64,000 nt of DNA from an uncultured Actinomycetes bacterium. GTDB lineage: Bacteria; Actinomycetota; Thermoleophilia; UBA2241. Shown piece after piece: positions 26,322-50,495 of this stretch; the stretch's first letter is position 1, and the number at the start of each line of letters is the position of its first letter. Made by a program: the position numbers and the translations under genes. The stretch spans positions 1 to 64,000 of the forward strand of contig CAVWIH010000014.1 in NCBI GenBank assembly GCA_963755025.1, written 5' to 3'. The notes beneath the pieces were generated by a model, which saw only the letters and a program-made list of their open reading frames with translations, was not told the origin of the DNA and searched no databases.

Positions 26322-26374
26322 GGGGGCCCTTCCGCAGCGTGGGTGAGCCCATCGGCGCCGCGGGCGTCGCGCGC

Positions 26375-27790
26375 TCATTCATTGACGATCCTCTCGAGGA
26401 CGAAGGTGTCGTCGGGCTCGGCGACCGTCGCCGGGTGGGCGGCCGAGCGGCGCCGGCACGTCTCGGCCGTGAGCACGGCCAGGAACCACAACGCCAGCGG
26501 GCTGCGCGCCGGGTCGAGGATCGTCCACGACACGAACCCCTGCAGGAATACCCCGACGATCATGCCGAACAGGATGAGCGTGAGGAACTCGGCGTCGTCG
26601 TCGCCGCTGAGGCTCAGGCGGGCGGCGCGCCACGCCGCCGTGCCGAACAGCAAGACGACGAGCACGACCCCCACCAGGCCCAGCCGGTAGACGGTGGGCA
26701 CCCAGACGAGGTCGGACGCCAGGCTGTCGACGGTGGAGACCCGGGGATCCTGGACGGCCGACACAAAGCCGGCGCCCGTGAGGGCGTCGCCCCCGGTGTA
26801 GCCGTACACGGTGCGAAACGAATCGATGCGGCTCTGCACGTTGGTGTCGTGGACCGGGCCGCCCTTCGCGGTCGCCAGGTGCAGGCGCGAGAGGATGTAG
26901 TTGGACTGGGTGGGCAGCACGGCGAAGGCGACCAGACCGAGCACGATCACCACGCCCACGATCTGCAGGCCGCGCTTGAGCGCCGGCCAGGCCTCGCGCG
27001 CCTTGAAGAGGCGCAGGGCGAGCACGACGACGACCTCGACGACGGCGATGAGCAGCAGCGAGCGCGTGTAGGACACCCACACGGCGGCCAGCGTGACCAC
27101 GAACACGCCGAACCAGAACACGCCCCACTTGCGCTTGGCCACGCAGTAGGCGATCGCCAGGGGCAGGAGCTGCGGCATGAAGTAGAAGCTGCGCGTGAGC
27201 CGCTGGCCCTGGAAGATGATCGACTGGTACTCGGTCGCATTGTAGATGTGGATGTGGAGCCCCTGGTGGAGCACGAACAGCCCGGCGGCGATGGTGTTGA
27301 CGACGACGATCGCCGCCACGAAGTCGAGCGTCTCCTTGCGCCCCGCGTGGCAGCAGATGCCGCGCAGCAGGAAGTAGCCGGCTATCAGGAACGTGAACGA
27401 CTTGGCCTCGGTCACCGCCGAGCCAAGGCCCGAGTAGTGCACCGCAGTCAGCACGATCTCGAGGACCACGAAGACGGCGAAGCCCACGACCACGAGCTCT
27501 TCGGGCGGGCAGAGGCGCGGCCCGAAGAGCTGCCGCTCATGCATGCGCCGCCGTCGCCTGGGCAGCAGCAGGTCGAAGTACAGCGCCCAGGTGATGACCA
27601 GCCACAGCATGACGTGGTCGACGGGGTCGAAGCGGGCGGGCACCCAGAACGGCTTGGCCTTGTCGAAGAACACCGAGAAGCTCATGAACATGAGAAACGG
27701 GATGCCCAGCAAGAAGACGCGCTGCCGCAGTGAGCGCTCGAGGAAGTAGAGCAGCAGCAGGGCGGGCACCGCGTAGCGCACGAGGCCCAT
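26375..27790 (-). CDS. Wzy/WaaL-like polysaccharide polymerase or ligase
   Basis: About 11-12 TM segments, SYTRS, extracytoplasmic loop with SRID...TGAGF. Confidence 0.7.
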   Translation of the reverse strand: MGLVRYAVPALLLLYFLERSLRQRVFLLGIPFLMFMSFSVFFDKAKPFWVPARFDPVDHVMLWLVITWALYFDLLLPRRRRRMHERQLFGPRLCPPEELVVVGFAVFVVLEIVLTAVHYSGLGSAVTEAKSFTFLIAGYFLLRGICCHAGRKETLDFVAAIVVVNTIAAGLFVLHQGLHIHIYNATEYQSIIFQGQRLTRSFYFMPQLLPLAIAYCVAKRKWGVFWFGVFVVTLAAVWVSYTRSLLLIAVVEVVVVLALRLFKAREAWPALKRGLQIVGVVIVLGLVAFAVLPTQSNYILSRLHLATAKGGPVHDTNVQSRIDSFRTVYGYTGGDALTGAGFVSAVQDPRVSTVDSLASDLVWVPTVYRLGLVGVVLVVLLFGTAAWRAARLSLSGDDDAEFLTLILFGMIVGVFLQGFVSWTILDPARSPLALWFLAVLTAETCRRRSAAHPATVAEPDDTFVLERIVNE

Positions 27791-29114: not shown

Positions 29115-30379
<1,265 letters not shown>

Positions 30380-30380
<1 letters not shown>

Positions 30381-31231
30381 CAGATGAGGTCCGCGAAGGT
30401 GCGTTCCATGCGCTTGAAGTACCTGAGGCCGGTCACCAGCAGCACCGCCATGGCCGTGTTCGACACGAGGAACAGCCAGCCCGGCGCCGCCTGGCCGGCC
30501 AGCGCCCACTGAAAGCCCTGGATCACGCCGACGAGCGGGTTCAGCCCGTAGATGAACGCCCAGGTGCCCTTCAGGTGGAACACATAGGCGACCGGCGACA
30601 GGAACATCCAGAGCTGAATGAGGAACGGGATGATGTACTGGACGTCGCGGTAGAGCACGTTCAGGGCCGCGAGCCACAGGCCGAAGGCGAGGGCCGTGAT
30701 CAGCGCGAGCAGCGTGAAGAACGGCAGAAAGACGATGTGCCAGCTCGGGGGCACGCCGTAGGCCGCCATGAGGCAGAAGTACACGACGAGCGAGATGATG
30801 AAGTCGACGAGGCCGCCGACCACGGCTGAGATCGGTATGACGAGGCGCGGAAAGTAGATCTTGGTGAGCAGGTTGGCGTTGCCGACCAGGCTCATGCCGG
30901 CGCGCCCGAGGGCGCCCGAGAACAGGTTCCACGGCAGCAGCGCCGCGTAGGTGACGAGGATGTACGGAACGTTGCCCACCGCGTGCTGCTTGACACCCAG
31001 GATCTTGTTGAACACGACGTCGAACACGACGACCGTGATCACCGGGTTCAGCACCGCCCACAAAAAACCCAGTATGGCCTGCTTGTAGCGCACCTTGATG
31101 TCGCGCCACGTGAGGAAGTAGAGCAGCTCGCGGTACTCCCACAGCTCGTCGAGACGCAGCGCCGTCCGGCCCTTGGGCGGCTTGATGACCCGCTTCACGC
31201 GGATGATCGGTTCACCTACAGCGGTCTCCAC
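30380..31231 (-). CDS. wzm: Wzm-like ABC-2 permease
   Basis: ELWEYRELLYFLTWRDIKVRYKQ, KIYFPR, YRDV, LNPL, FADLI. Confidence 0.93.
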
Positions 31232-31332
31232 ACCCCTCCGTTCGACGACACCCTTACCCCTTCAGGCGGCCGGGCTGCGCAGGCCCGAAGCCCTCGTTTC
31301 TGAGGGCCAACTGTACACAACTCCGGTAACGC

Positions 31333-31361
31333 TTATCGACATCGCCCCCTTAATCATTGAG
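31333..31361 (-). promoter_or_regulatory. Sigma28/WhiG-like promoter upstream of the wzm operon
   Basis: CTCAA-N16-GTCGATAA. Confidence 0.6.
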
Positions 31362-31412
31362 GACGCCTGCCGACGCATGGGATGGCACGAATGTACTGAC
31401 GGCAGGAGGCCC

Positions 31413-32939
31413 ATGGTGAGAACGACCAATCGGCTCTGGAGCGTCGCCGCAGCGATACTTCTGGTCACCCTCGCAGTCCCGGCATTCGCCGACGCATCGG
31501 TTTCGGCGCCGCAGGCGCAGCAGCGCATCGTGACGTGCGCGAAGGGTACCCACTCGCTCGAGCGCCAAATCAACGTTCTGCTCGCGCAGGTCTCCAGGGC
31601 GCGCAGCCACTCCACGATCAAGACCCGCATCATGCGCGCCAGCGAGCGCGTGATCAGGCTCAACCGCCGGGTCGTGCGCCTCAACCGGGTCGTGTTGTCG
31701 TCGAGTGCCGCCGACGAGACCACCCTGACGGCGCTGCTCGCCCTCGATCACCGGCTCATCAGGGTCGACCATGCCACGGTCACCACCGACCGTCGTGCGC
31801 AGCTCGGCCACGGCTCGCATCTGGTCGTACGCGTCACCACGTTCGTGACCCGCATGAGCGCCCTGCGCGACAGGGCCTGGCGCCAGCGGCACGCGCTGCC
31901 CGATCCCACCGTGCCCGCCCCCACGCCGACGACCACACCCACCCCGGAGCCTTCAGCCACGCCGACCGCCGACCCCACGCCGACCGCGACCCCCACGGTC
32001 ACGCCCACGCCGACCGCGACCCCCACGCCCACCCCGACCCCGACCGTGACTCCCACGGTCACCCCGACCACGACCCCCACGCCGGTCTCCGGCGACACCA
32101 CGATCACCGGCCAGACCTTCAACACCTACACCATCCCCGCCGGCACCCACGACGTGGACTACGTCGACTGCACCTTCAACGGCGGTAACGCAAGCACAGC
32201 CGTGCTCACCTTGAACCAGACCTGCTACGACCTCACCTTCACCGACTGCACGGTCGGCTCGGGCCCCTGGAACGGCGTCACCATCAACGTCACAAACGGC
32301 AACATCCACGACATCACTTTCACCGGCTGCCACATCCTGGCGGCGGGGCGCATGGGCATCGAGTGCACGCAGCGTCCGGCCTCCAACACCGTGGGCTACA
32401 AGAACATGAAGTTCATCAACGACGTGATCGAGCCCTCAGCCGAAGAGGCGATGAGCTTCGACGGCGGCTACTTCGCCGCCGACAGCCTGATCGACGGCTG
32501 CACGATCAACGGCTCCGACAACTCTGCCAACCCGCAGTGGGATGGAGCTCTAGAGATCAACGGCCCGAAGGACTTCACAGTAAGTAACACCACCATCTAC
32601 GAATGCAAAGAGGGCGGTCTGAACCTTGAAGGCCAGCCTGGCGCAAACTGCGGCCTCGTGTTCGACAACGACACTGTCGACTTCTCTCAGCTCAGGGAGA
32701 CCTACCCCGTGGACAGCTCGACCGCTCGCCTCACCGAGCTGCAGAACGTCAACGGCGCGGTCTTCAGCAACTGCAAGTTCGTTCTGGGCAAGGCTTGGAA
32801 CGCGGGCTACTGGACCAGCTCCTCCAACAACGACCTCTCGACCAGCTCCATCAGTGGCAGCACGCCTGCAGGGCAAGGCAGGTCGATGTGGTCGTTGGAT
32901 TCCGGCTCTCTAAGCAACAAGATGCCGACCCAGGAATAG
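31413..32939 (+). CDS. Secreted protein: signal peptide, Arg-rich helical domain, Pro/Thr linker, right-handed beta-helix domain
   Basis: GGAGG RBS; AFA-D signal cleavage; (PT)n linker at ~31905-32085; repeated xTFTxCxI/V beta-helix rungs. Confidence 0.75.
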   Translation: MVRTTNRLWSVAAAILLVTLAVPAFADASVSAPQAQQRIVTCAKGTHSLERQINVLLAQVSRARSHSTIKTRIMRASERVIRLNRRVVRLNRVVLSSSAADETTLTALLALDHRLIRVDHATVTTDRRAQLGHGSHLVVRVTTFVTRMSALRDRAWRQRHALPDPTVPAPTPTTTPTPEPSATPTADPTPTATPTVTPTPTATPTPTPTPTVTPTVTPTTTPTPVSGDTTITGQTFNTYTIPAGTHDVDYVDCTFNGGNASTAVLTLNQTCYDLTFTDCTVGSGPWNGVTINVTNGNIHDITFTGCHILAAGRMGIECTQRPASNTVGYKNMKFINDVIEPSAEEAMSFDGGYFAADSLIDGCTINGSDNSANPQWDGALEINGPKDFTVSNTTIYECKEGGLNLEGQPGANCGLVFDNDTVDFSQLRETYPVDSSTARLTELQNVNGAVFSNCKFVLGKAWNAGYWTSSSNNDLSTSSISGSTPAGQGRSMWSLDSGSLSNKMPTQE

Positions 32940-33144
32940 CCACTCGCTCCCGACATCGGAGACGATGCTCCAGTCTCCAATCGGAGCAAGTCTGGGCAAT
33001 GCGGCAGGTCAGTCCACCGACCTTACCGCATTGCCCTTTGCCCGTATTGAAAACGCGGTTGGCTGCGTATCGGTGTCGGGCAACCTGTAGGCTAAGGGCC
33101 GCGCGGGAGCCGCGGCCACCGCATTGACCTATCAGGAGGGTTTC

Positions 33145-34014
33145 TTGGTCCCAAAAGTGGGAGATCAGCCGACTATCTCGGTAGTAACACCCTCTCTGAA
33201 CCAGGGTGAGTTCCTCGGAATGACCCTCGATTCAGTTTTGACGCAGCACTACCCCAATCTCGAGTATGTGGTCATTGATGGAGGCTCGACCGACGGCAGC
33301 GCTGAGACGATCGCCCGTCACGAAGCAGATTTGACGTATTGGGTGAGCGAGCCGGACCAAGGGCACGCCCACGCCCTCAACAAGGGCTTCGCCAAGACCA
33401 GTGGCGAGATCATGTGCTGGATCAACAGCTCCGACATGTACTACCCGTGGACGTTCGAGACCGTCGCTCAAATCTTTCGGCAGCACCCCCAGGTCGACTG
33501 GATAGTCGGCATGGCATCTTGGTTCGACATCAACGGTGGTCCAAGGGGAATCGCCCCCGGGCGCGGGACGATCAACGAGTACGACGTTCTTGCCGGGAAC
33601 TACCGGTGGATTCAGCAGGAGTCAGTGTTCTGGCGGCGCCATCTGTGGGAGCGAGCAGGCGGCCACCTCGACCAGAGTCTAAAGTGCGCAGCCGACTTCG
33701 ATCTCTGGCTGCGATTCTTTCGCCTCGCCTCTCTCTACCACGTCCAAACGGTTTTGGGCGGATTCAGGGTGCATGGCAACCGGCTGGCCGACGCAGGCGA
33801 CGGGCTCTATGAGCGTGAGGCTCGCCAAGTCCACGCGCGCTTCACTGCCGACCACGATCGAAAATCACGTGCTCGCGCCCGCCTCGTCCGCTTGGCCGGC
33901 GCTCGCGGCGCCCGGAATGTCGGCGACAACCTCAACAAGATCGGCGTCTTGGACTGGTATAGGCACCCGCGCCTGGAATTCGACTGCGACAGAATGGTGT
34001 GGCTCCTTCGATAG
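33145..34014 (+). CDS. GT2 family glycosyltransferase (WcaE/WfgS-like)
   Basis: ISVVTPSLNQ, IDGGSTDGS, SEPDQG, WINSSD, ADFDLWLRF; TTG start after GGAGG. Confidence 0.88.
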   Translation: MVPKVGDQPTISVVTPSLNQGEFLGMTLDSVLTQHYPNLEYVVIDGGSTDGSAETIARHEADLTYWVSEPDQGHAHALNKGFAKTSGEIMCWINSSDMYYPWTFETVAQIFRQHPQVDWIVGMASWFDINGGPRGIAPGRGTINEYDVLAGNYRWIQQESVFWRRHLWERAGGHLDQSLKCAADFDLWLRFFRLASLYHVQTVLGGFRVHGNRLADAGDGLYEREARQVHARFTADHDRKSRARARLVRLAGARGARNVGDNLNKIGVLDWYRHPRLEFDCDRMVWLLR

Positions 34015-34817
34015 GCCGAGCCCGACGCGGGCGAGCAGCCCCTCGCGCTGTGCGCGCCCCTGGGACCCCTGACCCAAGGCCCAGCCCACCAAACGTGAGA
34101 CGCGGATACGCTTCATGCGATCCCTGTAGTGGTTCGGACTGGTCTCCCGGAGGATCGCCAGGTACTCTCTGTCGTCGCCGAGCGCCCGGTAGTCGCGCAA
34201 GGTGTCGATCAGGCTTCGTTTTGCGACCGTGAGCCGGTCGGACCCTTCGGTGTGGACGACAAGAAGGGACGGCGCAACGTAGTATCGGCGCGCTCTGCGT
34301 CCGATCTTCAGCCATAGGGTCTCCTCGCCCCAGGGAATGCGCTCGTCGAACCGCATACCCCGAGCAGATCCGTGCGCGTGATGCCCCAGTGCACACCACC
34401 GACCAAGGCGGGGTCGAGCCAGCCGTCGACGTCGACCCCCGTCCCAGTCAAGCCCCCCGTGACAGAGTCGACGGCGTTGCAATCGACTGCTGTGGCCCCG
34501 GTGCGCTCAGCAGCGGCCATCATGACGGAGAGCGCGTCAGGCGCCATCTCATCGTCGGAATCGAGCGTCGTGAACCACTCGCCCCTGATGCGATCGAACC
34601 CCGTGTTCTTCGCGGCCGTCACCCCACGGTTCACTTTGTGACGCGCGAGCCTGATGCGAGGATCATCGTAACGCTCGATGACCTCGACTGAACCGTCTGT
34701 CGAGCCATCGTCGACAACGATGAGTTCCCAATCGTCGGAGTCCTGCATCAGCACACTGTCGATGGCCCTCCCGATCGTGCGCTCGCGGTTGTAGTTGGCG
34801 ATGATGACACTGATCAA
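33865..34817 (-). CDS. GT2 family glycosyltransferase (frameshift near 34358; true 3' end uncertain)
   Basis: ISVIIANYNR, VDDGSTDGS, TLDSDD; continues as RFDERIPWGEETLW in another frame. Confidence 0.75.
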
Positions 34818-34952
34818 CGGATCCCTCCCGGCCGGCTACCTCCATGTTACCATCGGCAGCAAGGTCGGACTTCACCACAGTACGAGTTTCATCGCTGATT
34901 CTCGGAGCGCTCTTGCGGGTGCTGGCGCACGGCCACAAGTCGCGGGAGATGA

Positions 34953-35868
34953 TCAGGAGTCCGGCGGACTCACGGCGGAGGCGGCGGCGAGCCCGGCGCT
35001 CGGCTCGTTGGACAAGAGCTTGAGCCGACAGCACTCGGCGATCAGGTCGGCGGCATGCCACTCGACATCGTCGGCCACGCGCAGCTCGCCCAGCCGCTCG
35101 AGCACCGCCCTGGTCGCCGCCGCCATCGGGCCGGCCTGTCCGATATCCGAAAGCCAGCGGACGGTCTCGTCGAGCTCCTCGACGCGGCGCGCGACGTGGC
35201 GTGGGTAGCTCGGCAGGAGCCGCTCGACGCTCGCCATGCTGCCGGGGTAGAAGTCGGCCAGGCGATCGAGCAACTCGCCGCGCTGTCCGAGGCGGTCGGC
35301 CGCCGCGGCGGCTTCGAGGACGAGCGCCACGAGCCCTTTGTTGAAGCCGGCGAACGAGAGCTTGAACGCCGACGCCAGGCCCACGTCGGCGCCCAGCACG
35401 CGTACCCGCAGGGCCGGCTCGAGGAGGGCGCCCAGGCGCTGCGCCCCGGGGCCGCTCAGGTAGAGCGTCGTCTGGCCGCCGATCGTCGCCGCCCCGCCCA
35501 CGAACGCGCCGTCGACGGCTTCGCAGCCGGCCGCGGCGGCGAGGGCGAGCGCGGCGCGCCGCCGTTTGCGGCGCCACCGAGTTGGCGTCGAGGTAGCACG
35601 GCTGGGCACCGGTACGGCCGACGGCCGCGGCGCAGGCCGCAGCCGTGGCGACGACGGCGTGCTGGGGCACGAGCGAGACGACCAGGTCGGCCTGCGCGAC
35701 GACATCGTCGAGCGAGGCGAGGACTTCGACCCCGGCGGCTCGCGCCAGGGCGCCGGTGCGCGCGCCGCGCCCATCGAGGCAGGCGACGGCTCGCCAGCCG
35801 CGCTCGGTAAGGCGGCGCGCCAGCGCGGCGCCCATGTCGCCCGGGTAGAGGACGGCGACGGTGCTCAC
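34953..35868 (-). CDS. NAD(P)-dependent oxidoreductase, 6PGD/DUF1932-like (frameshift near 35565)
   Basis: VAVLYPGDMG, YLDANSVAP, VDGAFVG, LYLSGP, ASAFKLSFAGFNKG, RRVEELDE. Confidence 0.8.
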
Positions 35869-37086
35869 CGGGCAGTTCCCCGAGCCGCGTCGTCGCACAC
35901 GCCCAGGCGCCGCGCGACGAACTTCGCGGCGTGTCCGGCGAACGACATGGAGCCCACCAGCGAAGGCAGCGGGTCGGACCAGCTGAAGAAGGGCAGCACC
36001 TGGCGATGGGCGATGCTGGCGAGGTAGGCCGCGCCCGTCGCCTCGCCGCGCGCCCGCGCGGCCAGGAAGCTGCGCAGGTCCTTGCCGGGGCGCCAGAAGT
36101 CGCAGGCCCCGGCGGTAGACGCGGTCGGCCGGCGGCGCCGGCCGGCGGCCGACCAGGCGCTCGTAGACGAACAGGCCGAGGTCGCAGCCGCTCGCCACGA
36201 GGAGCCCGTTGGCGGCGGTGAAGCGGGCGTTGCACTCGATGACCTTGAGGCGTCCGTCGCGCTCGTCGCGCTTGAACTCGACGTTGCCCACGCCCTGCAG
36301 GCCGGCGTGGCGCAGCAGCCGCAGCGCCAGGTCGCGGGCTTCGGGGATCCAGTCGGTGACGTGGTAGCAGCCGATGCCTTCGCCGGCCGGGAAGCGCCGC
36401 ACGATGCGCTTGGTGAAGTCGCAGAGGGGCGTCCCGTTCTCGTCTAAGTAGGTGTAGTAGCTGCAAAGGCGGTCGTCGGCGCCCGGTATCTCTTCGAGCA
36501 GCACGACGTCGAGATCGTGCTCGCGCACGCGGCGATACGCGGCCAGGAGCTCGGCGAAGTCGTTGACCCTCACGAACTTGGCGCCGGCGAACACGGCCTG
36601 GAAGCGGTGCGAGTAGAGCGGTTTGACGAGCAGCGGGTACACGTAGTCGCCTTGCTGGGCTTCGACCTGCGCGACGCTGTCGGCCGACCAGAAAAGCGGC
36701 GTGGGCACCCCGGCGTCGCGCGCCGCGCGATAGGTCGACAGCTTGTCGAGCATGAGGCGCTGGGCGCCGGGGTCGGAGATGTCGAGCACGAACTTGGCGG
36801 CGAGCGCGGCGCGGTGCTGCATCAGGATCTCGATGCCGGCGTCGGAGCAGGCGAGCAGCACGGCGCCGCGCCAGGGTTCGGACTCGTCGCCGAGCAGAAA
36901 GCGCTCCCACGACCCCTGGTCGCTGCCGGTGCGCCGGCCCCCGTCGCGCGCGTAGCGCGAGTAGCGGTCGGGCGAGCGTTCGGAGGTGAGCAGCAGCACC
37001 CGGACGCCCCGACGGCCGAGACTGCGCGCGACCGAGAGGGCGTTGCCGCCCGCGCCGCCGACGATGATCGCGGGGGGCAGGCTCAA
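35865..37086 (-). CDS. ATP-grasp carboxylate-amine ligase, D-aspartate-ligase-like (frameshift near 36090)
   Basis: NALSVARSLG, LDKLSTY, GVPTP, YPLLVKP, EEIPG, NVEFKRDERDGRLKVIECNARF, WSDPLP. Confidence 0.8.
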
Positions 37087-38153
37087 CGGGGGGCCGCCAG
37101 GCGCTCGAGCACCATGACCGCGACCGGCACGCCCGGCCCCTTGCGCAGGTAGTGGTAGTAGTAGCCGGGCGTGGCGTTCACTTCGATCACCTTGCCGCCG
37201 GCCTCGGCCAGGGCCACGGTGGGATCGGGCGTGATGACGTCGACCCCCACCAGCCGAGCGGCGATCGCCGCCGCCGTGCGCGCGCCTTCGGCGACGAGCG
37301 CCGGGCAGAGCGTGCCCATGACGTCCTCGTTGTCGTCGCGGCGGTTGTCGTTGACCACGTTCTTGAGCACCACGACCCGGTCTGAGCCGGGCACCGCGCG
37401 CAGCCAGAGCCCCTGGCCGCGCAGCGTCTCTTTGAGCTCCCAGTCGATCTGCACGAGCGACTGGCCGCCCTCGATGCCGGCCTCGGTGCGCGCCCGGTTC
37501 TCGGACTCGATCAGCTGCCGCATGGTCGAGATACCGTCGCCGCGCACCGTCGGCGGCCGCCGCAGCACGGCGTCGAGCAGCTCGCCGTCGAAGTAGAGCA
37601 GGCGGTAGACCCCGCCCGCCACGTGCTCCTCGATCAGGACCTCGTCGCAAAAGACGGCGGCCTTGACCAGCGCGACCGCCAGGCGCGCCTGGCCGCGCAC
37701 GCCCGTCGTGATGCCGGTGCCGCCGGCGCTGCCCCGGGCCGGCTTGACCACGCAAGGCGCGCCGGCCGCCTTGACGAATCGCCAGGCGGCGGCCAGGTCG
37801 TCGGCGCGACAGACGTGGTGGCGGGGCACCGGGATGCCGCGCTCGGTCAGCAGCCGGTAGACGAGCGGCTTGTCTTCGGCGATGGCGACCGTGACGGGAT
37901 CGTCGAGCGAGGTGACGTTGTTGCGCGCGCGCAGCACGACGTCGCCGCAGGCGATCTCGAGCAGGTGCGGCTGCAGGCGGCGCACCGAACCCCCCACCGC
38001 CGCCGCCGCTTCGGTCCACACGTTGTCGTAGAACGACGAGCGCCGCTCGTCGACCTGCCGTTTGGCAGGCGTACGCACGTAGAGCTTGTTGGCCACCTTG
38101 CCGGCCAGGGCAGCCGAGTCGAGCATCGTTCGTGTGATAGTCACGCCGGCCAC
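37083..38153 (-). CDS. Stand-alone ATP-grasp ligase resembling the cyanophycin synthetase/GshAB ATP-grasp domain
   Basis: AEDKPL, GIPVP, PCVVKPARGSAGGTGIT, LIEEHVAG, YRLL, PPTVRGDG, GVDVIT, IEVNATPG; no Mur ligase domain. Confidence 0.8.
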   Translation of the reverse strand: MAGVTITRTMLDSAALAGKVANKLYVRTPAKRQVDERRSSFYDNVWTEAAAAVGGSVRRLQPHLLEIACGDVVLRARNNVTSLDDPVTVAIAEDKPLVYRLLTERGIPVPRHHVCRADDLAAAWRFVKAAGAPCVVKPARGSAGGTGITTGVRGQARLAVALVKAAVFCDEVLIEEHVAGGVYRLLYFDGELLDAVLRRPPTVRGDGISTMRQLIESENRARTEAGIEGGQSLVQIDWELKETLRGQGLWLRAVPGSDRVVVLKNVVNDNRRDDNEDVMGTLCPALVAEGARTAAAIAARLVGVDVITPDPTVALAEAGGKVIEVNATPGYYYHYLRKGPGVPVAVMVLERLAAPR

Positions 38154-38154
38154 C

Positions 38155-38880
38155 CTACGGCGTGATGACGCAGCCGCTCTCGGCCAGCAGGTCGTCGACC
38201 CAGGCGTTCGAGAACTCGCCCCTCTTCACGCCCGCGAAGTAGTCGCGGTTCTTGGCGGCGTAGGCCGTGAGGCGTTCGAAGATGTCGTGGGCGTTCTCGC
38301 GCGGCACGATGACGACGCCGTAACCGTCGGCCACCACGATGTCGCCGGGGTTCACGACGACGCCGCCGCAGCAGATCGGATAGTTGATCTCGCCCGGCCC
38401 GCGGTGCAGGGGGCCGATCGGCGTGGTGCCGCGGGCGAAGATGGGAAAGTCGAGCGGCACGATCTCGGGCAGGTCGCGGATGTAGCCATCGACCACAAAG
38501 CCGGCCAGCTTGCGATGGCGCGCCTTGGTCGAGATCAGGCCGCCGAGCGCGGCGTTCATGCGCGAGCCGCCGGCGTCGACCACGACGACGTCGCCGGGCT
38601 GGGCGACGTCGAGCGCCTTGTGCACCATGAGGTTGTCGCCCGGATAGACCCTGACCGTGCAGGCGGGGCCGATGAGGTGGTGGTCGTCGCCGGTGACGCA
38701 TTTGATCTGCGAGGCTAGCGCGTAGAGCCGGTTGAGCTGGTCGGAGATATCGGGCGAGTCGAACGCCGCGAAGCGCTGCATGAACTCGTGGTCGAGGCGC
38801 TCGAACGACAGACGGATGCGAAAGCCGGGGCCCGGGTTGATCTCGGCCGACTTGGGTTTGTTGGGTACGGCTGTCGACAC
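38155..38880 (-). CDS. RraA / HMG-CHA aldolase family protein
   Basis: DISDQL, GPACTV, PGDNL, QPGDVVVVD, VVDGYIRD, VNPGDIVVADGYGVV; GGAGGAGG RBS. Confidence 0.88.
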   Translation of the reverse strand: MSTAVPNKPKSAEINPGPGFRIRLSFERLDHEFMQRFAAFDSPDISDQLNRLYALASQIKCVTGDDHHLIGPACTVRVYPGDNLMVHKALDVAQPGDVVVVDAGGSRMNAALGGLISTKARHRKLAGFVVDGYIRDLPEIVPLDFPIFARGTTPIGPLHRGPGEINYPICCGGVVVNPGDIVVADGYGVVIVPRENAHDIFERLTAYAAKNRDYFAGVKRGEFSNAWVDDLLAESGCVITP

Positions 38881-39053
38881 GACGACCTCCTCCTGGTGCG
38901 GTGCGCTGCTCGCGGCCACGAGCTTAGGCCATTATCCCACGCACGGCCAACGGCGGCCGAGCGAGACTTAGGGCAACGAGGATGCTAGCCTTCGCCTCAA
39001 GAGCGCGCGCACGCGGCGCGCCGCGCGGGCTTGGGGCGGGCCGGGAGGAGCCG

Positions 39054-40332
39054 TTGAGTAGCAGCCAGAAAGTGGGAAGCGGTGTTCCCGAGGGGGCGCT
39101 GCCGGCCGGCGACGCCGGCCGGCAGCGCCCCCTCGAAGTCGTCATTCTCGGCGACTGGCTGCGCTTTCCGCACGGTATGGCGGCCACCAGCCGCGCCCGC
39201 CTCGTGGCGCGGGCGCTGGCCGAAGCTGGCGTGCGCGTGCGCGTCGTGGTGCTGCAGGCCGGCGACCGCGCCTCGCACGTCGAGAACACGGCCGTGCGGG
39301 GCGTCTTCGACGGGATCCCGTTCGAGTACACCTGCGGCACGACCGTACGCCACGACTCGTTCGCGGCGCGCCGCCTGATCGCCGCCTGGGGCTGGGTGCA
39401 CGGCGCCCTGCGCCTGATGCGGCTGCGCGCCGAGGGCCGCCTCGACCTCGTCTGCCTGTGGTTCTGGACGCCAAGACCCGCCGCGCGCCTCGCCGTGTTC
39501 ATGCTCCTGCTGCGCCTGCTCAAGGTGCCGGTCGTGCGCGAGGTCGACGAAAGCACGTGGTCGCAACGCGACGAGACGACCGCCCTCGAGCGCCTCTGGT
39601 CGCCGCTGTCCGGCATGGCCGGCGTGCTCGCCATCTCGGCCGAGCTCGACCGCTGGGCCCGAGCCGAAGCCCGGGGCCGGCCGCTGCGCGTCGTCGAGGT
39701 GCCCATCCTGGTCGACGTCGACGAGCATGCGCCGAGCGCGTATCCCGACGGCGACCCGGTGGTCGTCTTTGCGGGCGCACCGGGCTACAACGAGACGATC
39801 AGGTTCATCTTCGCGGCCATGGACGAGGTCTGGCGCAGCCGGCCCGACTGCCGCCTGGCGGTGACCGGCGCCGACCCGCACGACCCCGCGTCGGACTGGC
39901 TGCGGGCCGAGGTGCGCGACGCCGGCCTCGGCGGCCGCGTCGACCTGGTGGGCTATCTCGACCGCGACGAGCTGCTCGCGCTGTACGCGCGCGCCCACGC
40001 CCTGCTGATCCCGCTCTTCGACAACACCCGCTCCAAGGCCCGCTTTCCGACCAAGATCGGCGAGTACCTCGGCGGCGGCGCGGCCGGTGGTGACGAGCGA
40101 CGTAGGCGAGATCCCGCGCTACTTCACCGACGGCGTCGACGGGGTCGTGTGCCCGCCCGGCGACCCGGTCGCCTTTGGCCGCGCCATCGTCGACCTGCTG
40201 GCCGACCCCGCTCGCGCCGCGCTCATCGGCCGCCGCGGGCGGCTGGTCGCCGAGACGCAGTTCCACTACGCACTGTACGGAGAGACGCTGGCGCGCGCCT
40301 TCGCCGAGACCGTCGGCGTGGCTGCGTCATGA
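39054..40332 (+). CDS. GT4 family glycosyltransferase (frameshift near 40075)
   Basis: FPHGMAATSR, GYLDRDEL, ARFPTKIGEYL, then PVVTSDVGEIP in a shifted frame. Confidence 0.82.
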
Positions 40333-40348
40333 GAGGCAGGGGGACCGC

Positions 40349-42235
40349 ATGTGCGGCATAACCGGGATCCTGCATCACTCCGTCGACGAGGCCGTCGACC
40401 CGGCGCTGGTCCACGTCATGACCGACGTGCTCGAACATCGCGGCCCCGACTCCGACGGCTTTCACCTTGAGCCGCGCGTGGGCGTGGGCGCCCGCCGCCT
40501 GAGCATCATCGACCTGGCGACCGGCGACCAGCCCATCGGCAACGAAGACGGCACCGTGTGGGCGGCCCTGAACGGCGAGATCTACAACTACGTCGAGCTG
40601 CGCACCCGCCTGATCGAACAGGGCCATCGCTTTCACACCGGCTGCGACACCGAGGTCATCGCCCACCAGTACGAGCAGGACGGCCTCGACTGCGTGCGCC
40701 GCTTCCGCGGCATGTTCGCCTTCGCCGTGTGGGACGCGCGCAGCGGCGAGCTCATGATCGCCCGCGACCGGTTCGGCATAAAGCCGCTGTTCGTAGCCGA
40801 GGCGCCCGGCGCGCGCATGGCCTTCGCCTCTGAGATCAAGTCGCTCCTGCACCTGCCGTGGCTCGACCGTTCGTGGAACGCCGAGGCGCTGCGCGCCTAC
40901 CTGCAGGTGGGCTACGTGCCCTGTCCCATGACCGCCTACAACGGCGTGCGCAAGATGGCTCCCGGCACCGCCGAACTGTGGCGTCTGAGCGACTCCGACC
41001 ACGGCGGAGGTCTGCAGCGCAGCTCGCGCTACTGGGCCCCGCGCCTGGTGGCGGCCCGCCCCGTGCCGTCGTTCGACGAGGCGCGCGAGCGCGCCGCCGA
41101 GCTGCTGCAGGAGAGCATCCGGCTGCACCTGCGCAGCGACGTGCCGCTCGGCGCGTTCCTGTCCGGCGGCGTCGACTCGAGCACCGTCGTCGCCCTCACG
41201 CACGCGAGCGGCGTCCACGACCTGAAGACGTTCTCGATAGGCTTCGAGGGCGAGGCCTCGAGCGAGCTGCCCTACGCCGACCGGGTGGCGCGCCACCTGG
41301 GCACCGACCACCACACCGAGATCGTAGGCGCCACCGAAGCGCGCCTGCTGCCCGAGCTGCTCGCCCGCTTCGACGAACCCTTCGCCGACGCTTCGGCGAT
41401 CCCCACCTTCCTCGTGAGCAGGCTGGCGCGCCAGCACGTGACGGTCTCGCTGTCGGGCGACGGCGGCGACGAGCTCTTCGCCGGCTACCCGGTCTACGCC
41501 GCCCTGGCGCCCTACCGGGCCATCGACCGCGTGCCGCTCGCGCTCCGGCGCCCGCTGTCGCGGGTGGCGGCGCTGGCCATCTCCGAGGGCGCCCGCGGCG
41601 GCGGGTTCGTGCGCCGCATGACCTCGCCGAAGGAGCTGCGCTACCTGTCGCTGCGCCACGGCCTCACGCCCCTCGAGGGGCCGGTCATGGACGCGCTGAG
41701 CCCCTCCTTCGCGTCGTTCCTGCGCGAGGTCGGCGACGCCGGCTGGCAGCTCGGCTTCACCTACGACGGCAGCGTCGGCGACGCCCAGCGCATCGACCAG
41801 TCGACCTACCTGATCGACGACGTGCTGACCAAGGTCGACCGCAGCAGCATGGCGGTCTCGCTCGAGGCCCGCGTGCCGCTGCTCGACCACGTCTTCGCCG
41901 ACTACGTCAACGCGCTCCCGCTCTCGTTCAAGCAGCGCGGCTCCCGCCAGAAGATCCTGCTCAGGGCGATCGGCGAGCCGCTGCTGCCCAAAGGCATCTT
42001 CGACCGCCCCAAGCAGGGCTTCTCCGTGCCCCTGCGCACGTGGCTCGACGGGCCGCTCAGCAAGTTCTCGCGGGAGCGGCTCATAGGCGACGAGGTCGGG
42101 CTGTTCTCGCAAGCCGGCGTGGCGGCGCTGCTCGAGCTGCAGCACTGCAGCACGCGCAACATGAGCCCGCGCGTGTGGACGCTGCTCAGTCTGGCGACGT
42201 GGGCGGAGGCGGCGCGCAGCGGGGCGCCGTGGTGA
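40349..42235 (+). CDS. asnB: Glutamine-hydrolysing asparagine-synthase family amidotransferase
   Basis: MCGI, HRGPD, RLSIIDL, NGEIYN, RDRFGIKPL, LSGGVDSS, SGDGGDELFAGY, KVDRSSM. Confidence 0.93.
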   Translation: MCGITGILHHSVDEAVDPALVHVMTDVLEHRGPDSDGFHLEPRVGVGARRLSIIDLATGDQPIGNEDGTVWAALNGEIYNYVELRTRLIEQGHRFHTGCDTEVIAHQYEQDGLDCVRRFRGMFAFAVWDARSGELMIARDRFGIKPLFVAEAPGARMAFASEIKSLLHLPWLDRSWNAEALRAYLQVGYVPCPMTAYNGVRKMAPGTAELWRLSDSDHGGGLQRSSRYWAPRLVAARPVPSFDEARERAAELLQESIRLHLRSDVPLGAFLSGGVDSSTVVALTHASGVHDLKTFSIGFEGEASSELPYADRVARHLGTDHHTEIVGATEARLLPELLARFDEPFADASAIPTFLVSRLARQHVTVSLSGDGGDELFAGYPVYAALAPYRAIDRVPLALRRPLSRVAALAISEGARGGGFVRRMTSPKELRYLSLRHGLTPLEGPVMDALSPSFASFLREVGDAGWQLGFTYDGSVGDAQRIDQSTYLIDDVLTKVDRSSMAVSLEARVPLLDHVFADYVNALPLSFKQRGSRQKILLRAIGEPLLPKGIFDRPKQGFSVPLRTWLDGPLSKFSRERLIGDEVGLFSQAGVAALLELQHCSTRNMSPRVWTLLSLATWAEAARSGAPW

Positions 42236-43337: not shown

Positions 43338-44332
43338 AGGGGCTTCACTGCGAGGCGGCCGCCGGCAAGCAGCGCGTCGGCGATCGGGGTGAGCGTGGCG
43401 AACTCACCGCCCGCGCGGGTCACGAAGCCAAAGAACGAGTCGAGGCAGTCGAGCAGGTCACGCACCGACCGCGCGTCGGGGCGAAAGGGGCTCCCGCCGG
43501 GCATGAGCTCGCTGCTGTGGAACATCATGACGAGCGTGTCGAGCCCGAGGCGGGCGGCGCAGCGCCACAGGTCGGCGAGGTCGGCGGCGGTAAGGCGCGG
43601 GTCGGGGGTGAGCCACATGGGCTGAGGGCGCAGCCAGCGCGACAACAGCAGCTTGCGGGCGGCGCGCACCGGCAGGAGCTGGTAGGCGCCGAGCAGGGCG
43701 GGCGACCTGCGCAAGATGGTGTAGGTCGGGATGATGGTGACGGGGATCTCGACCAGCGGACGCTCGCCGGCGCCGAGCAGGAACGGGCGCGGCAGGTGTG
43801 CGCTGAAATCGGGCCCGCCCTCGCCGCCCAGGCCCGCGTGCTTGCGCCACGACCACAGCGGGGTCACCGACGAGTCGACCGTATAGCCGGCCGCGGCCAG
43901 GAACGCCGCGCTGCGGTCGTCGAAGCCGAACCGGCCCGCCCGGTACGACGTGGGGCGGCCGCCGAACGCGGCCACGAACTGCTCGGTCAGCGTGGCGATC
44001 TTGTCGCCCAGCAGGTCGCCGGGAAGCTGCGACGGAAAGGCGTGGTCGGGGTCGTTATAGCGCAGGCCCGGCCGGTCGACGAAGGGCGGCGTCGTCCAGG
44101 GGTGCAGGTGGGTGCCCACCTCGGCGGCGCCGCGCGACGCCCACGAGGTGAGCAGCTCGCGACCTTGGTCGTCGGCCATGATCTCGGTCGTGACGAGGTA
44201 GGTCGGAGCGGCGCCGTGGCGCTCGCAGAGTTCCTGGAACGGAGCCCAGAAGCCGACGTTGCGCGTGGTCAGCGGCGCACCGTGGTCCCACTGGCCGTCG
44301 GCTTCGGTGTCGATGGTGACGGCGAGTCTCAT
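43334..44332 (-). CDS. Polysaccharide deacetylase-like (CE4, WalW-type)
   Basis: VTIDTE, EVGTHLHPW, SYRAGRFG, VDSSVTP, VEIPVT, MMFHSSE. Confidence 0.85.
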   Translation of the reverse strand: MRLAVTIDTEADGQWDHGAPLTTRNVGFWAPFQELCERHGAAPTYLVTTEIMADDQGRELLTSWASRGAAEVGTHLHPWTTPPFVDRPGLRYNDPDHAFPSQLPGDLLGDKIATLTEQFVAAFGGRPTSYRAGRFGFDDRSAAFLAAAGYTVDSSVTPLWSWRKHAGLGGEGGPDFSAHLPRPFLLGAGERPLVEIPVTIIPTYTILRRSPALLGAYQLLPVRAARKLLLSRWLRPQPMWLTPDPRLTAADLADLWRCAARLGLDTLVMMFHSSELMPGGSPFRPDARSVRDLLDCLDSFFGFVTRAGGEFATLTPIADALLAGGRLAVKPL

Positions 44333-45570
44333 CGCGACCGATCGTCGGCTCGAAGACGCACGAGAGCCTCCACCCGGCGCTCGGCGTTCGCCAGAGCGCA
44401 GACCGCAGGCGAGCAGACCTTCTCGTGGATCGCCAGCGACCTGGTCAAGTGGTCAAGCGAGGCGAAGCCCCGTTTGAACTGGTTGATGCCCCACAGCGAG
44501 TCGCCGGGTCGCGCCATCATGGAGTAACCGACGAGGTCGAACGTCGTGCAGCCGTGCAGCCGCGCCCAGCGCATGGCCTCGTAGACAAGCAGGTGGCTGG
44601 CCGGAAGCTTGTCGTGATGGTGCGACGAGGGGATGACCGGCAGGTAGGCGGTCGAGCCGTGGACGATCACGAGAGCGGCCGCCAGCGGCTCGCCGTCGTG
44701 GCGCGCGACGAGCACGGTGCCACCGGACCCATCGATCCTGCCCGCCATCCAGGCGGCTTCGATGCGCGCCAGCGTCGCTTCGTCGAGCTCGGGCACCGGC
44801 GCCCTGCGCCGGAGCTCCGCCTGCAGGCTCGAGAGCGTCGACCAGCCTGACGGTGTGTCTTCGACGCGCACCTCTATGCCGTGGCGCTGCGATTGACGGA
44901 TGGCGCGCCGGGTCTCGGCCCGAAACGAAGCGAGGACATCGTCGTCGTCGTGCCCGATGTCGACCAGCAGCGTCGCCCAGCCGCCCATGGCCCGGCGCCG
45001 CGCGAAGCCCTGGCGCTCGAGGATGGTCTCGGCGTCGTCGCCGCCGGCGTCGAGGCGCATGGCGGGTTGGACCCGCAGCCGGGCCGCCTCGCGACCGAGC
45101 CGCCCGCCGAGCCACGACAGCCAGTCGTCGAGGACGGCGCTGTCGAGGACCAGCGGACCCCGGTTGAACTCCCAGAAGACGCGGCCGGGGAGAGGCAAGT
45201 GACGCCGCACGCCGAGCGCCGTCAGGCAGATGACGCCGTCGCGCTCGGCCCAGAAGAAGAAGGGCTGCCGCGCCGTCGAGCCGCTGCCGCAGCGCTCGAC
45301 CTCGGCCCACGCCGGATCCTGGTGATAGCTGGCCCAGGGCACGCCGTGGGCGAACTCACGCCAGCGCAAGGGCTGCTCGCCATCGAGTCGCGGCGCGGCG
45401 AAGTACCGCAGTCCGGCCGCCGGGCTCGCCGCCGGGCTCGCCGGGGCCGCAGTCGAGGCCGCCGGGACCATGATCGAGGTCGCCGTCGGGCTCTCCGAAC
45501 TCCCCGACGACCGCGCGGCGCCTTCGACCCTATGCAGCGGACTGTTGACCCTCGCCCCCGTCATCGTCAT
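44329..45570 (-). CDS. FemABX-like (double-GNAT) aminoacyl transferase
   Basis: YHQDPAW, RGPLV, TLLVDI, TRRAIRQS, HLLVYEAMRWA, FDLVG, GINQFKRGF; start uncertain. Confidence 0.8.
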   Translation of the reverse strand: MTMTGARVNSPLHRVEGAARSSGSSESPTATSIMVPAASTAAPASPAASPAAGLRYFAAPRLDGEQPLRWREFAHGVPWASYHQDPAWAEVERCGSGSTARQPFFFWAERDGVICLTALGVRRHLPLPGRVFWEFNRGPLVLDSAVLDDWLSWLGGRLGREAARLRVQPAMRLDAGGDDAETILERQGFARRRAMGGWATLLVDIGHDDDDVLASFRAETRRAIRQSQRHGIEVRVEDTPSGWSTLSSLQAELRRRAPVPELDEATLARIEAAWMAGRIDGSGGTVLVARHDGEPLAAALVIVHGSTAYLPVIPSSHHHDKLPASHLLVYEAMRWARLHGCTTFDLVGYSMMARPGDSLWGINQFKRGFASLDHLTRSLAIHEKVCSPAVCALANAERRVEALVRLRADDRSR

Positions 45571-45779
45571 TACCCCGTCGGCGCGGCCGTCGCTCGCTCA
45601 AGTGCTCGCGACCCCTGCCTTGAGCCGGCGAACGCGCTCGCCCATAGTTTATTCCATCGACGACGTCAAACTGGCGTGACGAGCGTTTGCCGGTGAAAGA
45701 ATGGAGCCGCTCACCGGCGCCCGACCGCCGTTGTCCTTTCTGCCGGACTGACCGTCCAGCAGGTCTCCAGAGGGGTCAC

Positions 45780-47998
45780 ATGCCACACCTGAGCGTCTCG
45801 ACGGTCGTACCCACGTACAACCGCGCGCGCCTGCTCGAGCGCGCGCTGCGCTCGGCGCTCGCCGAGTGCCGGCCCGGCGACGAGATCATCGTCGTCGACG
45901 ACGGCTCGAGCGACGACACCGAGGCCGTCGTGCGCGACCTCGGGCCGGCGCTGCGCTACCTGCGCACGCCTCACCTCGGCGCCGGGGCGGCGCGCAACGC
46001 GGGTGTGGAGGCCGCGACCGGCGACCTGGTCGCCTTTCTCGACTCCGACGACGAATGGGCGCCGGGCAAGCTCGCCTGGCAGCGCGCCGTCATGGAGCAG
46101 TTCCCCGACGTCCTCTATCTGTTCAGTGACTTCGGCGGCGTCGACTGGACGGGCGAGCGGCAGCACGAGCGCATCTCGTCGTGGCGTGGCGACCAGCGCC
46201 CCTGGACCGAGGTCCTGGGCCCGGCGGTCTCCTCGACGACGATCGCCGGCCTGCCGCCCGGTGCGCCGCAGTTCGACCTGCACGTCGGTGACTTCTACGA
46301 CGCCTACCTGCGCGACTGGTGCGTGTACACCTGCACGGTGGTCGTGCGCCGCGAACAGGCCGCGGCGGCGTTGCGCTTTGCCGAAGACCTTCCGACCTAC
46401 GAAGACGTCGAGTGTTTCGCGCGGCTCGCGAGGCACGGTCTGGCCGGCTACATGACGTGCGAGACCGCCTGGCAGCATGGCCACACAGGGACGCGTCTGA
46501 CCGACGCCGACCCCGCCACCCGAGCCGACGCCGCGGTCACGATCGTGCGCCGCGTCTGGGGGGCCGATCCTCGAGTTTCTCGGCCGTGCGGGCAAGCGGC
46601 GCGAGCTCGAGGCGGTCATCGACGAGCACCGCGCCCGCAAGGCGCGCGCCCTCCTCGCGGCCGGCCAGGCCGAGCAGGCTCGCCTCGAGCTCGCTCGCTG
46701 CTTTGGCTTTCCCTGGTCGCTGTACCTCCTCACCCTTCTGCCCGTCAGCGTGACGCGCCTCGGCGTGACGGGTGTGCGCCTGGCGCGAGCGTTGCAAGCT
46801 CACGGCGCGCCGGCTTCTCTGCCGGACGGCTGGAGCATCGTCGAGCACCGTGGCAGCGAGGCGTTCGCGAAGCTGCAGGCCGACTGGGACCGTCTCTGCG
46901 ACGCCATGCCGCAACGCACCGCCTTTCAGGCTCGCGAAGCGCAGCGTGCCTATGCCGAACTGCTCATGGATGCGCCCGACCGCTTGCGTTGCCTCGTGCT
47001 GCACGACGGCGACACCGTGCGGGCCATCTGTCCGCTCGAGGCACGGACCGACGACGTCCTGGGGCCCAGGCTCGCCGTCTGGGGCGTGCCCTGGCACCCT
47101 CACCTGCTGGTGTCCGACGTGGTCTGCCCCGAAGACGACGCTCGCGGGGTGCTGATCCCCGCGCTCGCCGAGTACCTGCGACGCGAACCGCGCGGCGGGC
47201 GCTTCGCGGTCCTCGGTCCATTGCCGGCTGCGTCGGCGCTGTGGGACGGGCTGCGCGGGCTCGGCCCCCTCGGCTACTGCCTGCAGAACGCCGAGCCCTG
47301 CGACATCTTCGACTGCGCACGACCGTTCGACGAGCTCATGGCGCGGCTCTCCAAGCACTTCCGCCGCAACCTGCGCGCCCACCGCAAGAAGCTCGAGTCG
47401 TTTGCCGACGTGCGCTTCGTGACCGCCACGGGCGACGACCTGGCCGCGGCGTTCGAGACCTTCGTCGCCGTCGAGGCCTCGGGCTGGAAGGGCGCGTCGG
47501 GCGTGGGCAGCGCGATCGCGCTGCACCCGGACCTGCTCGCGTTCTATCGTCGCCTCGCCGCGAGCACCCGTGATCGCTGCGAGATCGAACTCGCTCGTCG
47601 CCGACGGCCGCTGCCTCGCCACCCAGTTCTGCATGGTCAGCGGCGAACAGTACTCCATCCTGAAGATCGCCTACGACGAGGACTACGCTCGCATCGCTCC
47701 CGGGCTCCTGCTGCTCGAGACAACGCTCGAACGGTGCTGCGCCGATCCCGCCATCAGCCGCATGAGCCTGGTGACCGACGGCGCCTGGCAGCGCGACTGG
47801 CGCCCCGACGTGATCGCCATGCAGCGCGCCTACCTGGGGCTCGGCCGCTGGTCGGCAAGGCCACTGGCCGCGTTGCTCAGCCTGCGGTTCGGACCCGAGC
47901 CCCGGCTCGTGGTCTGGGCGCGCGAGCGCCGGGCCAGGAACCGCAGCAAACGCTGCAGGTTGCTTCACGTCTCGGGTAGATATGCCGACTACTCGTAG
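45780..47998 (+). CDS. GT2 glycosyltransferase fused to a CelD/BcsL-like GNAT (Acetyltransf_6) domain (frameshifts near 46570 and 47590)
   Basis: VVPTYNR, VDDGSSD, FLDSDD; then LQADWDRL, LSKHFRRNLR, EASGWKG, KIAYDEDYARIAPGLLL. Confidence 0.7.
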
Positions 47999-49138: not shown

Positions 49139-49191
49139 TCCCGGCCGCGGCGCGCGAGCGCGCCCCAGCCGTGGCTACCGGTCGGCCGGAG

Positions 49192-50116: not shown

Positions 50117-50384
50117 CCAGAACTCCGTTTCCTTGCCACTCGAAGGTCGGCGGCGACCCTGAGGGTCGCGGTGGAGGCCGTCCTTCCTTGCCGTGTCGCG
50201 CCTTTCTGTTCGCGACCTCGGCTCCTCCCGGGCGGCAGGAGCTGCGCACCCCTCGCCCGGCTCGTCAGATGGACCGACGCCTCGCCGCCTGCGCAGCAAG
50301 CGAGCGTCGGATCCGGCGGTCTCGAGACATGCCGAGACCACGCCGAAGCGGCCGCGAACGACCGTCGGCGACTGCCGTCTGGGA

Positions 50385-50495
50385 TCAGCGAACGAAGGGG
50401 GTCACCGCGCGGTCATCTCGAACGAGGAGTGAGATGGGGCGGTAGGGGGTATAGAGGTCGTGCAAGTGGGCCGGGGCCAATCGTCTACGGTGCAT
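50385..50495 (-). CDS. Candidate 36-aa leader/small peptide
   Basis: AAAGGAGG 6 nt before ATG; MHRRRLAPAHLHDLYTPYRPISLLVRDDRAVTPFVR*. Confidence 0.4.
   Translation of the reverse strand: MHRRRLAPAHLHDLYTPYRPISLLVRDDRAVTPFVR

Follow-up and report, generated by a model that had tools for sequence, protein, structure and literature searches.

Amide-linked acid and amino-acid decorations alter the charge of exopolysaccharides, their metal binding, their recognition by phages and the immune system, and their material properties. To our knowledge, very few enzymes are known that install such decorations on glycans. We could document a single proven example of this general kind of enzyme. In Campylobacter jejuni, the C-terminal TupA-like ATP-grasp domain of Cj1438 (Cj1438C), which is joined to a GT2 glycosyltransferase, converts the C6 carboxylate of glucuronate in the HS:2 capsule to an amide (PMC11800379). 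Here we describe a set of four genes (G1 to G4) on the minus strand at 34953-38880 of a 64,000-nucleotide stretch of DNA, hereafter the window, which comprises positions 1 to 64,000 of contig CAVWIH010000014.1 in assembly GCA_963755025.1, a draft genome of 39 contigs and 84% completeness from an uncultured soil bacterium of the Actinomycetes (Thermoleophilia). With moderate confidence, we propose that G1-G4 are a conserved glycan-decoration cassette, in which amide bonds would be formed at the cytoplasmic face and an aldolase and a dehydrogenase would supply or tailor a small acid. The likeness to Cj1438C lies in an ATP-grasp enzyme of a polysaccharide locus that puts an amide on a growing glycan and is fused to GT2, as relatives of G2 are fused to GT2 (P0093) or to the flippase Wzx (P0069, L025, L026). 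The differences are that G2 and G3 have no match to the TupA-like family, and that two different ligases are found here together with an aldolase-like enzyme and a dehydrogenase. By analogy, G2 and G3 may at most work like Cj1438C; they are not members of its family.

At the 70% G+C of the window, long spurious frames are abundant, and for this reason the real genes were picked by the phase of the G+C signal at third codon positions (GC3) in combination with three-frame translation and profile searches. G1 (38155-38880) starts with a GTG at 38880, with AGGAGGAGG at 38894-38886, five bases upstream. The GTG of G2 (37083-38153) stands one base past the TAG of G1, so that the junction reads TAG-G-GTG; the TTG start of G3 (35865-37086) at 37086 overlaps the stop of G2 in a TTGA; and the GTG start of G4 (34953-35868) at 35868 overlaps the stop of G3, a TGA at 35867-35865, in a GTGA. 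The stop of G4 lies at 34953. Because of these junctions, we take G1-G4 to be translationally coupled. A first-pass annotation of this DNA had noted four genes with overlapping or abutting start and stop codons, and the closer look confirms that they are real and coupled, on the minus strand and at exactly 34953-38880; one amendment is needed, since in the sequence as it stands neither G3 nor G4 is an open frame, a frameshift lying near 36101 in G3 and near 35557 in G4.

G1 shares the PF03737 fold family with the HMG/CHA aldolases (LigK/GalC, structure 3NOJ), which are of the class II pyruvate aldolase or oxaloacetate decarboxylase type. It matches the RraA-like family PF03737 over positions 2-152 of 152 (E 4e-48), scores 225 bits on the RraA subfamily model NF004850 (cut-off 231), and has its best solved relative in the HMG/CHA aldolase chain 3noj_A (7e-27). 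For 3NOJ, Arg-123 is described as essential, stabilising the pyruvate enolate, and Asp-124 as a metal ligand (PMC5065237). An R-D pair of G1 is aligned to these two residues, and Arg-40, Asn-71, His-75 and Gly-101 are also matched, whereas Thr-145 and Lys-147 differ. G1 also scores below the equivalog cut-offs of the LigK/PcmE models, with 120.6 bits against 304.5 for TIGR02798 and 133.9 against 179 for NF006731. The HMG/CHA aldolases belong to the catabolism of aromatic acids and ring-cleavage products, whereas the context of G1 is glycan synthesis. Since the Arg and Asp are kept, the pocket differs and the score falls below the LigK-type equivalogs, its sequence suggests that G1 is an active pyruvate aldolase or decarboxylase of class II that acts on another substrate. 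A role as a regulator of RNase E was considered for G1 and rejected, because the protein retains the catalytic Arg and Asp and because translational coupling of its gene to those of biosynthetic enzymes recurs across phyla. As a separate observation, one locus of the survey described below (L019:4417-9977) holds two RraA-like genes, the extra copy standing beside SIS, 2-hydroxyacid-dehydrogenase and GFO-type genes just upstream of G1-G2-G3-G4.

By sequence, G2 is most closely related to the G domain of the cyanophycin synthetase CphA1 and to the GshB-like half of GshAB, both of them ATP-grasp domains that attach an amino acid to a C-terminal carboxylate. G2 is a stand-alone ATP-grasp ligase of 356 amino acids (aa), which matches the models NF010623 and TIGR02068 at about positions 168-472 of their 862-871 (1e-45) and reaches 155 bits against a CphA cut-off of 850-877. 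Its relatives in the PDB are a cyanophycin synthase (7lgm, 1e-25) and GshAB (3ln6, 1e-20), and it also matches the N-acetylglutaminylglutamine synthetase model TIGR03103 at 1e-40. While CphA1 is built from N, G and M domains, G2 has only the G-domain part, and the candidate identity of cyanophycin synthetase was rejected because the N domain and the Mur-ligase-like M domain of that enzyme (about 870 aa) are missing. The lysine of the VVKP motif (K137) and the E-x-N motif (E324/N326) are invariant in an alignment of four G2 sequences (A1), from which the G2 profile was made.

G3, for which the first pass had put forward a D-Asp-ligase-like identity, is a second ATP-grasp protein, different from and unrelated to G2, of the COG3919 or "carboxylate-amine ligase" type. 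It gives partial matches to PF02786 and PF15632; only weak VanA/Ddl matches were returned by the PDB sequence search, the single NCBIfam match was to a "carbamoyl phosphate synthase-like protein" with 42 bits (cut-off 218), and a search of a protein atlas produced only generic names, such as "carboxylate-amine ligase". The ATP-grasp lysine (K162) and the E-x-N motif (E290/N292) of G3 are invariant in an alignment (A2) made without L024, L028 and L030, whose G3 frames were interrupted by a stop or had none at their end. An AlphaFold model of the copy in a related genome, G010, was built on an alignment of 9 sequences and has a mean pLDDT of 80.7; Foldseek aligned it with carbamoyl-phosphate synthetase, L-amino-acid ligase, PurK, biotin carboxylase and Ddl (E about 1e-14, TM about 0.5-0.56). 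These matches are generic: as far as a predicted structure goes, they confirm the ATP-grasp fold and give no hint on specificity.

Judging by its profile matches, G4 is a Rossmann NAD(P) domain followed by a DUF1932 helical domain, an architecture that would make it an NAD(P)-dependent enzyme like 6PGD or the beta-hydroxyacid dehydrogenases. The N-terminal part (35569-35868) matches PF03807 and PF03446, and the C-terminal part (34956-35588), in another frame, matches PF09130 (DUF1932) at 1e-10; no NCBIfam model matched. The intact G4 of G010 aligns over about 240-265 residues to 4ezb, 1i36 and 3qsg, all uncharacterised proteins, and the next PDB relatives are the tartronate semialdehyde reductase 1vpd and a 2-(hydroxymethyl)glutarate dehydrogenase. 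In the family assignments of the first pass, profile and PDB matches thus uphold the RraA or aldolase-like protein, the ATP-grasp ligase like the CphA G domain, and the 6PGD-like protein with DUF1932.

How widely the unit is conserved was followed at several levels. Among 40 relatives, a DNA-level search gave long matches to the region in three only (G010, G001 and G021), and numerous short matches, which were taken as GC-rich chance or paralogue matches; G010 is syntenic with the window over the whole polysaccharide locus. The G2 profile led to 15 loci in a contig collection with one genome per species, and these were then searched by tblastn with the intact G010 proteins. Two-thirds of them (10 of 15: L017, L018, L019, L021, L022, L023, L024, L025, L026 and L028) hold G1, G2 and G3 together, and these ten trio loci come from Thermoleophilia, other Actinomycetota, Acidimicrobiia, Chloroflexia and Planctomycetota. 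A further locus, from a member of the Cellvibrionaceae (L030), has G2-G3 at the start of its contig. G4 accompanies the trio in five of the ten, downstream of G3 in L017, L018 and L019 and upstream of G1 in L021 and L023. For a census of the class, an even sample of 301 genomes (G000 included) was used, of which 31 match the G2 profile at 1e-30. Sixteen of these matches are orthologue-like (15 with at least 267 bits, plus G267); the other 15, at 30-36% identity and in open frames of mostly 590-1260 codons (one of 341), are probably, from these identities and lengths, genes of the cyanophycin-synthetase type. The order G1-G2-G3-G4 was found in eight class genomes (G000, G010, G001, G092, G230, G225, G173 and G267), and at least G1-G2-G3 in G220; G058 and G288 have G2-G3 with no G1 in the 1.5 kb seen, and G127, G116, G204, G042 and G149 show other or partial arrangements. 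The unit is, in short, patchy but recurrent. When the G2 profile was run against 1.84 billion representative proteins, 1866 matched at 1e-30. For the best 150 of these 1866, E was at most 3e-71 and the length mostly 350-390 residues, and full-length relatives of G2 fall into at least 150 distinct protein clusters at 50% identity.

The genes around the unit point to polysaccharide assembly. A Pfam scan of 100 neighbouring open reading frames (ORFs) from eleven loci, with 10 kb flanks, included nine trio loci (L017, L019, L021, L022, L023, L024, L025, L026 and L028), and a GT4 or GT2 glycosyltransferase, Wzx (Polysacc_synt), Wzy_C or a priming Bac_transf was found within 10 kb in all nine. The polysaccharide genes of the window itself include a priming transferase, Wzc-like, Wzm and Wzt proteins, GT1, GT2 and GT4 glycosyltransferases and a GDP-mannose dehydratase. 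Enzymes that would act on uronic acids recur as well: an epimerase of the window has TviC as its best-scoring family, far below the TviC cut-off, a TviC-like epimerase directly follows G4 in L017 and stands near the unit in L019, and L025 has a nucleotide-sugar dehydrogenase between G3 and a Wzx-G2 gene. On the two matters on which the first-pass annotation had made its proposal depend, conservation of the unit and company of polysaccharide genes, it was thus borne out, with the unit or its trio found across phyla and in polysaccharide loci.

Further evidence comes from the way in which members of the unit are exchanged for others. Four of the five trio loci that lack G4 carry another dehydrogenase beside the trio, namely an Ldh_2 gene directly after G3 in L022 and a gene of the isocitrate/homoisocitrate-dehydrogenase family (Iso_dh) in L024, L026 and L028. 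L030 likewise reads G2-G3-Ldh_2. In L020:863-6717 (the same place as L041), G2 is accompanied by an HpcH/HpaI class II aldolase, two 2-hydroxyacid dehydrogenases, a GFO/IDH/MocA oxidoreductase and a divergent Glu/Leu/Phe/Val dehydrogenase, with no RraA and no G3 detected there by tblastn with the G010 proteins or by the Pfam scan; this locus may represent a sister pathway that uses another aldolase family. That aldolase and reductase alike are exchanged for enzymes of other families with like chemistry fits an aldol step plus a redox step between oxo and hydroxy acid, and is the best support for such a scheme.

Genes of the unit are also found fused, in four kinds of combination among the 150 best relatives of G2: a G3-type ATP-grasp with G2 (P0033, P0066, P0070, P0134 and P0067), G2 with Ldh_2 (P0051 and P0117), Wzx with G2 (P0069, 904 aa), and GT2 with G2 (P0093). 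Two Chloroflexia loci, L025:8354-11011 and L026:8261-11044, have Wzx (Polysacc_synt) and G2 in one stop-free frame, of 886 and 928 codons, respectively, and the GC3 signal is unbroken in both. Given the topology of Wzx, a ligase on the C-terminus of the flippase would lie in the cytoplasm, where ATP is, and such a fusion points to action on a lipid-linked repeat unit before export. We would place the cassette with the ATP-grasp amidation of surface glycans, to which the version with DUF1932, the swaps to the isocitrate-dehydrogenase family and to HpcH, and the four kinds of fusion are added here.

The proposed mechanism builds on the observed families, conserved catalytic residues, coupling, cross-phylum core, polysaccharide loci and fusions, and from these we infer the substrates, the order of the steps and the polarity of the amide. 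G1, as a metal-dependent enzyme of the pyruvate aldolase or oxaloacetate-decarboxylase type, would act with G4 to make or trim a small oxo- or hydroxy-carboxylic acid. Each of the two different ATP-grasp ligases, G2 and G3, would turn a carboxylate into an acyl phosphate and from it make an amide. The product would be an acidic amide-linked side group, either the acid alone or the acid plus an amino acid, placed on a sugar repeat unit at the cytoplasmic membrane face before export by Wzx or an ABC transporter. The acceptor could be the amine of an amino sugar or the carboxylate of a uronate, and the opposite polarity is equally open because uronic-acid enzymes recur nearby. The first-pass annotation had proposed aldol condensation and reduction to a hydroxy acid that the two ligases would couple, perhaps via an amino acid, onto an amino sugar. 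The reductase swaps and the exchange of RraA for HpcH fit the aldol and redox steps of this scheme; its product, step order and acceptor are putative. In one such elaboration, which we put forward only tentatively, pyruvate and a small oxo acid would undergo aldol condensation and then reduction to a hydroxy-polycarboxylic side group, which one ATP-grasp enzyme would link by an amide bond to an amino acid and the second would attach to the lipid-linked repeat unit, with the last step physically coupled to the flippase as in the Wzx-ligase fusions.

Several observations weigh against a glycan-decorating cassette of this kind. There is no substrate, product or activity on record for G1-G4 or their close relatives, and our literature search found no paper that joins RraA and ATP-grasp, the papers that it returned on DUF1932 being unrelated. 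Among the profile matches of G2 and of G3 (E up to 0.01), the TupA-like family was absent, as judged by the Pfam accession that we take to be that of this family. In G1, two pocket residues of 3NOJ are replaced, Thr-145 by Pro and Lys-147 by His, and the phmmer alignment stops at chain residue 187, short of Glu-199, the second metal ligand. An enzyme of the isocitrate-dehydrogenase family does not sit easily in the place of a simple 2-oxoacid reductase, and in L025 the Pfam neighbour scan showed no 2-hydroxyacid dehydrogenase next to the trio. Orthologues of G2 with no G1 or no G3 within the 1.5 kb seen occur in G058, G288, G116 and G149. Lastly, the counts from the 15 loci describe loci chosen by two peptide patterns, and not a random sample.

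The same evidence has to be read against other explanations. It is conceivable that the ligases amidate the uronic-acid carboxylate of a repeat unit with amino acids, one ligase adding the first residue and the CphA-like one extending it, and that the role of the aldolase and dehydrogenase is confined to providing or modifying the amine partner, for example an opine-type N-(carboxyalkyl) residue made by reductive coupling of a 2-oxo acid. Such a scheme keeps the role in glycan synthesis but reverses the polarity proposed in the first pass. The Ldh_2 and 6PGD-clan families do include imine and opine reductases, but the isocitrate-dehydrogenase-family and 2-hydroxyacid dehydrogenases that take the place of G4 are not known as imine reductases, and there is no aminotransferase in the core. 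The TviC-like epimerases of L017, L019 and the window, which adjoin the unit or lie close to it, and the nucleotide-sugar dehydrogenase of L025, would suit a uronate acceptor, though the epimerase assignments are below the curated cut-offs. A precedent exists in Cj1438C, which is GT2-fused like the G2 of P0093 and amidates the C6 carboxylate of glucuronate (PMC11800379). On balance we regard uronate amidation of this form as unlikely. We think it less likely still that the product of the cassette is a small molecule in free form, comparable to N-acetylglutaminylglutamine amide or beta-citrylglutamate (for instance an acidic pseudo-dipeptide, an osmolyte or a signalling compound), with the glycan context being incidental. 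ATP-grasp enzymes do ligate citrate to glutamate, the similarity of G2 to N-acetylglutaminylglutamine synthetase (TIGR03103, 1e-40) and to GshAB is a similarity to makers of soluble products, and in L030 the G2-G3-Ldh_2 genes stand beside genes for a trehalose-phosphatase and for signalling, while glycan genes are absent from the 10 kb scanned. However, all nine scanned trio loci lie among glycan genes, the fusion of G2 in frame with Wzx and with GT2 is a physical link to glycan assembly, and no cassette-specific exporter is present.

The frame breaks raise another alternative, that G3 and G4 are true pseudogenes and the unit a decaying relic in the source organism, since both genes are out of frame in the sole assembly of its genome. 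In G3, the N-terminal part (36093-37086) and the C-terminal part (35868-36119) are in frames one base apart, a +1 change near 36101; in G4, another +1 change near 35557 separates the two parts given above. The GC3 phase tracks each change, which places the frameshifts in real coding sequence, and GC3 stays high across both breaks, with no further stops or deletions seen. By tblastn, gene 3 is undivided in G010, G001 and G021, its two parts sharing one frame, and the same holds for gene 4 in G010. Logan contigs from four public metagenome runs of four studies (X1, X2, X3 and X6; peat, soil and freshwater) were aligned to the stretch, with conclusions confined to the parts under contig cover and with contig joints whose sides are of 21-22 letters taken as pieces of other organisms. 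Every covering contig of X1, X2 and X3 leaves out one letter at 36101, where X6 has no cover, and one of these contigs has otherwise 2 mismatches in 197 letters. For 35557, one contig of X1 (313 letters, 11 mismatches) shows the same kind of one-letter omission. X2 and X6 have a gap of two letters at 35547, which speaks against such a simple correction, as it would not restore the G4 frame. When the letters at 36101 and 35557 were deleted by script, open frames of 406 and 304 codons resulted.

Breaks of this sort are not peculiar to the unit. A comparison of the window with the ORFs of 40 kb each from G010 and G021 gave at least five further frame breaks elsewhere: in the GT1 gene near 40075, in complex I antiporter-like subunits near 56140 and 57259, and in genes near 12750 and 13500. 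The G010 homologue of the neighbouring GT1/GT4 gene matches two frames of the window (38940-40079 and 40072-40317), and the ATPase and C-terminal domains of Wzt are in different frames. A break near 29820 was also seen among the frame changes of the window, in which the affected genes include GtrA/mannosyltransferase-like, GT1, Wzt and complex I genes. Since the relatives are single-frame, the contigs lack the letters and the window holds more such breaks, we regard single-letter errors of the assembly as the most likely cause of the breaks at 36101 and 35557, which may otherwise be private to the strain; a rare real variant may also exist beside these contigs. The organism therefore probably holds all four genes intact. 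Single breaks in so many unrelated genes, complex I subunits among them, and near-identical public contigs without the extra letters make a decaying relic very improbable. The assembly seems to carry many one-letter insertion or deletion errors, and with so many single-letter frame errors, gene calls and annotation drawn from it need care.

The flanks of the unit agree with the first-pass description of glycosyltransferases on both sides. Downstream of G4 and on the same strand lies a GT2 family gene at 34311-34835 (PF00535, 2e-37), with a TTG start near 34818 that lies about 135 bases past the stop of G4 and has GGGAGGGA in front of it. It is probably in the same transcript as G1-G4; just 175 codons are open in its frame, and G010 has no counterpart at the corresponding place. 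The adjoining frame at 33868-34506 has no family match, and the G+C of 31122-34835 is 0.62, against about 0.71. Divergent from G1, on the plus strand, is the GT1/GT4 gene at 38928-40358 (PF13692, PF00534), which is frameshifted near 40075. The window also contains two AsnB-like amidotransferases (24879-26378 and 40106-42232), one of which reaches 563 of the 817 bits required by the XrtA/PEP-CTERM amidotransferase model, and two FemAB-like acyltransferases of the FemAB/Acetyltransf_6 type (44332-45597 and 46501-47976), so that the locus carries several further amide-forming enzymes. A beta-helix-type protein of G010 matches the window in two places, 31122-32936 on the plus strand and 49178-50401 on the minus strand, at about 66% identity each, which means that the polysaccharide locus of the window holds two copies of this gene.

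With its numerous G2 clusters, its spread over several soil and peat phyla, its natural fusions to Wzx and GT2, and no paper found on it in the literature search, the cassette is a concrete target for enzyme discovery. The natural variants, with a DUF1932, Ldh_2 or isocitrate-dehydrogenase-type reductase and an RraA or HpcH aldolase, offer material for working out the chemistry. If the side group is indeed a hydroxy-polycarboxylic acid, it would represent a so far unknown class of polysaccharide side group, and a widespread way for soil bacteria to charge their exopolysaccharides.

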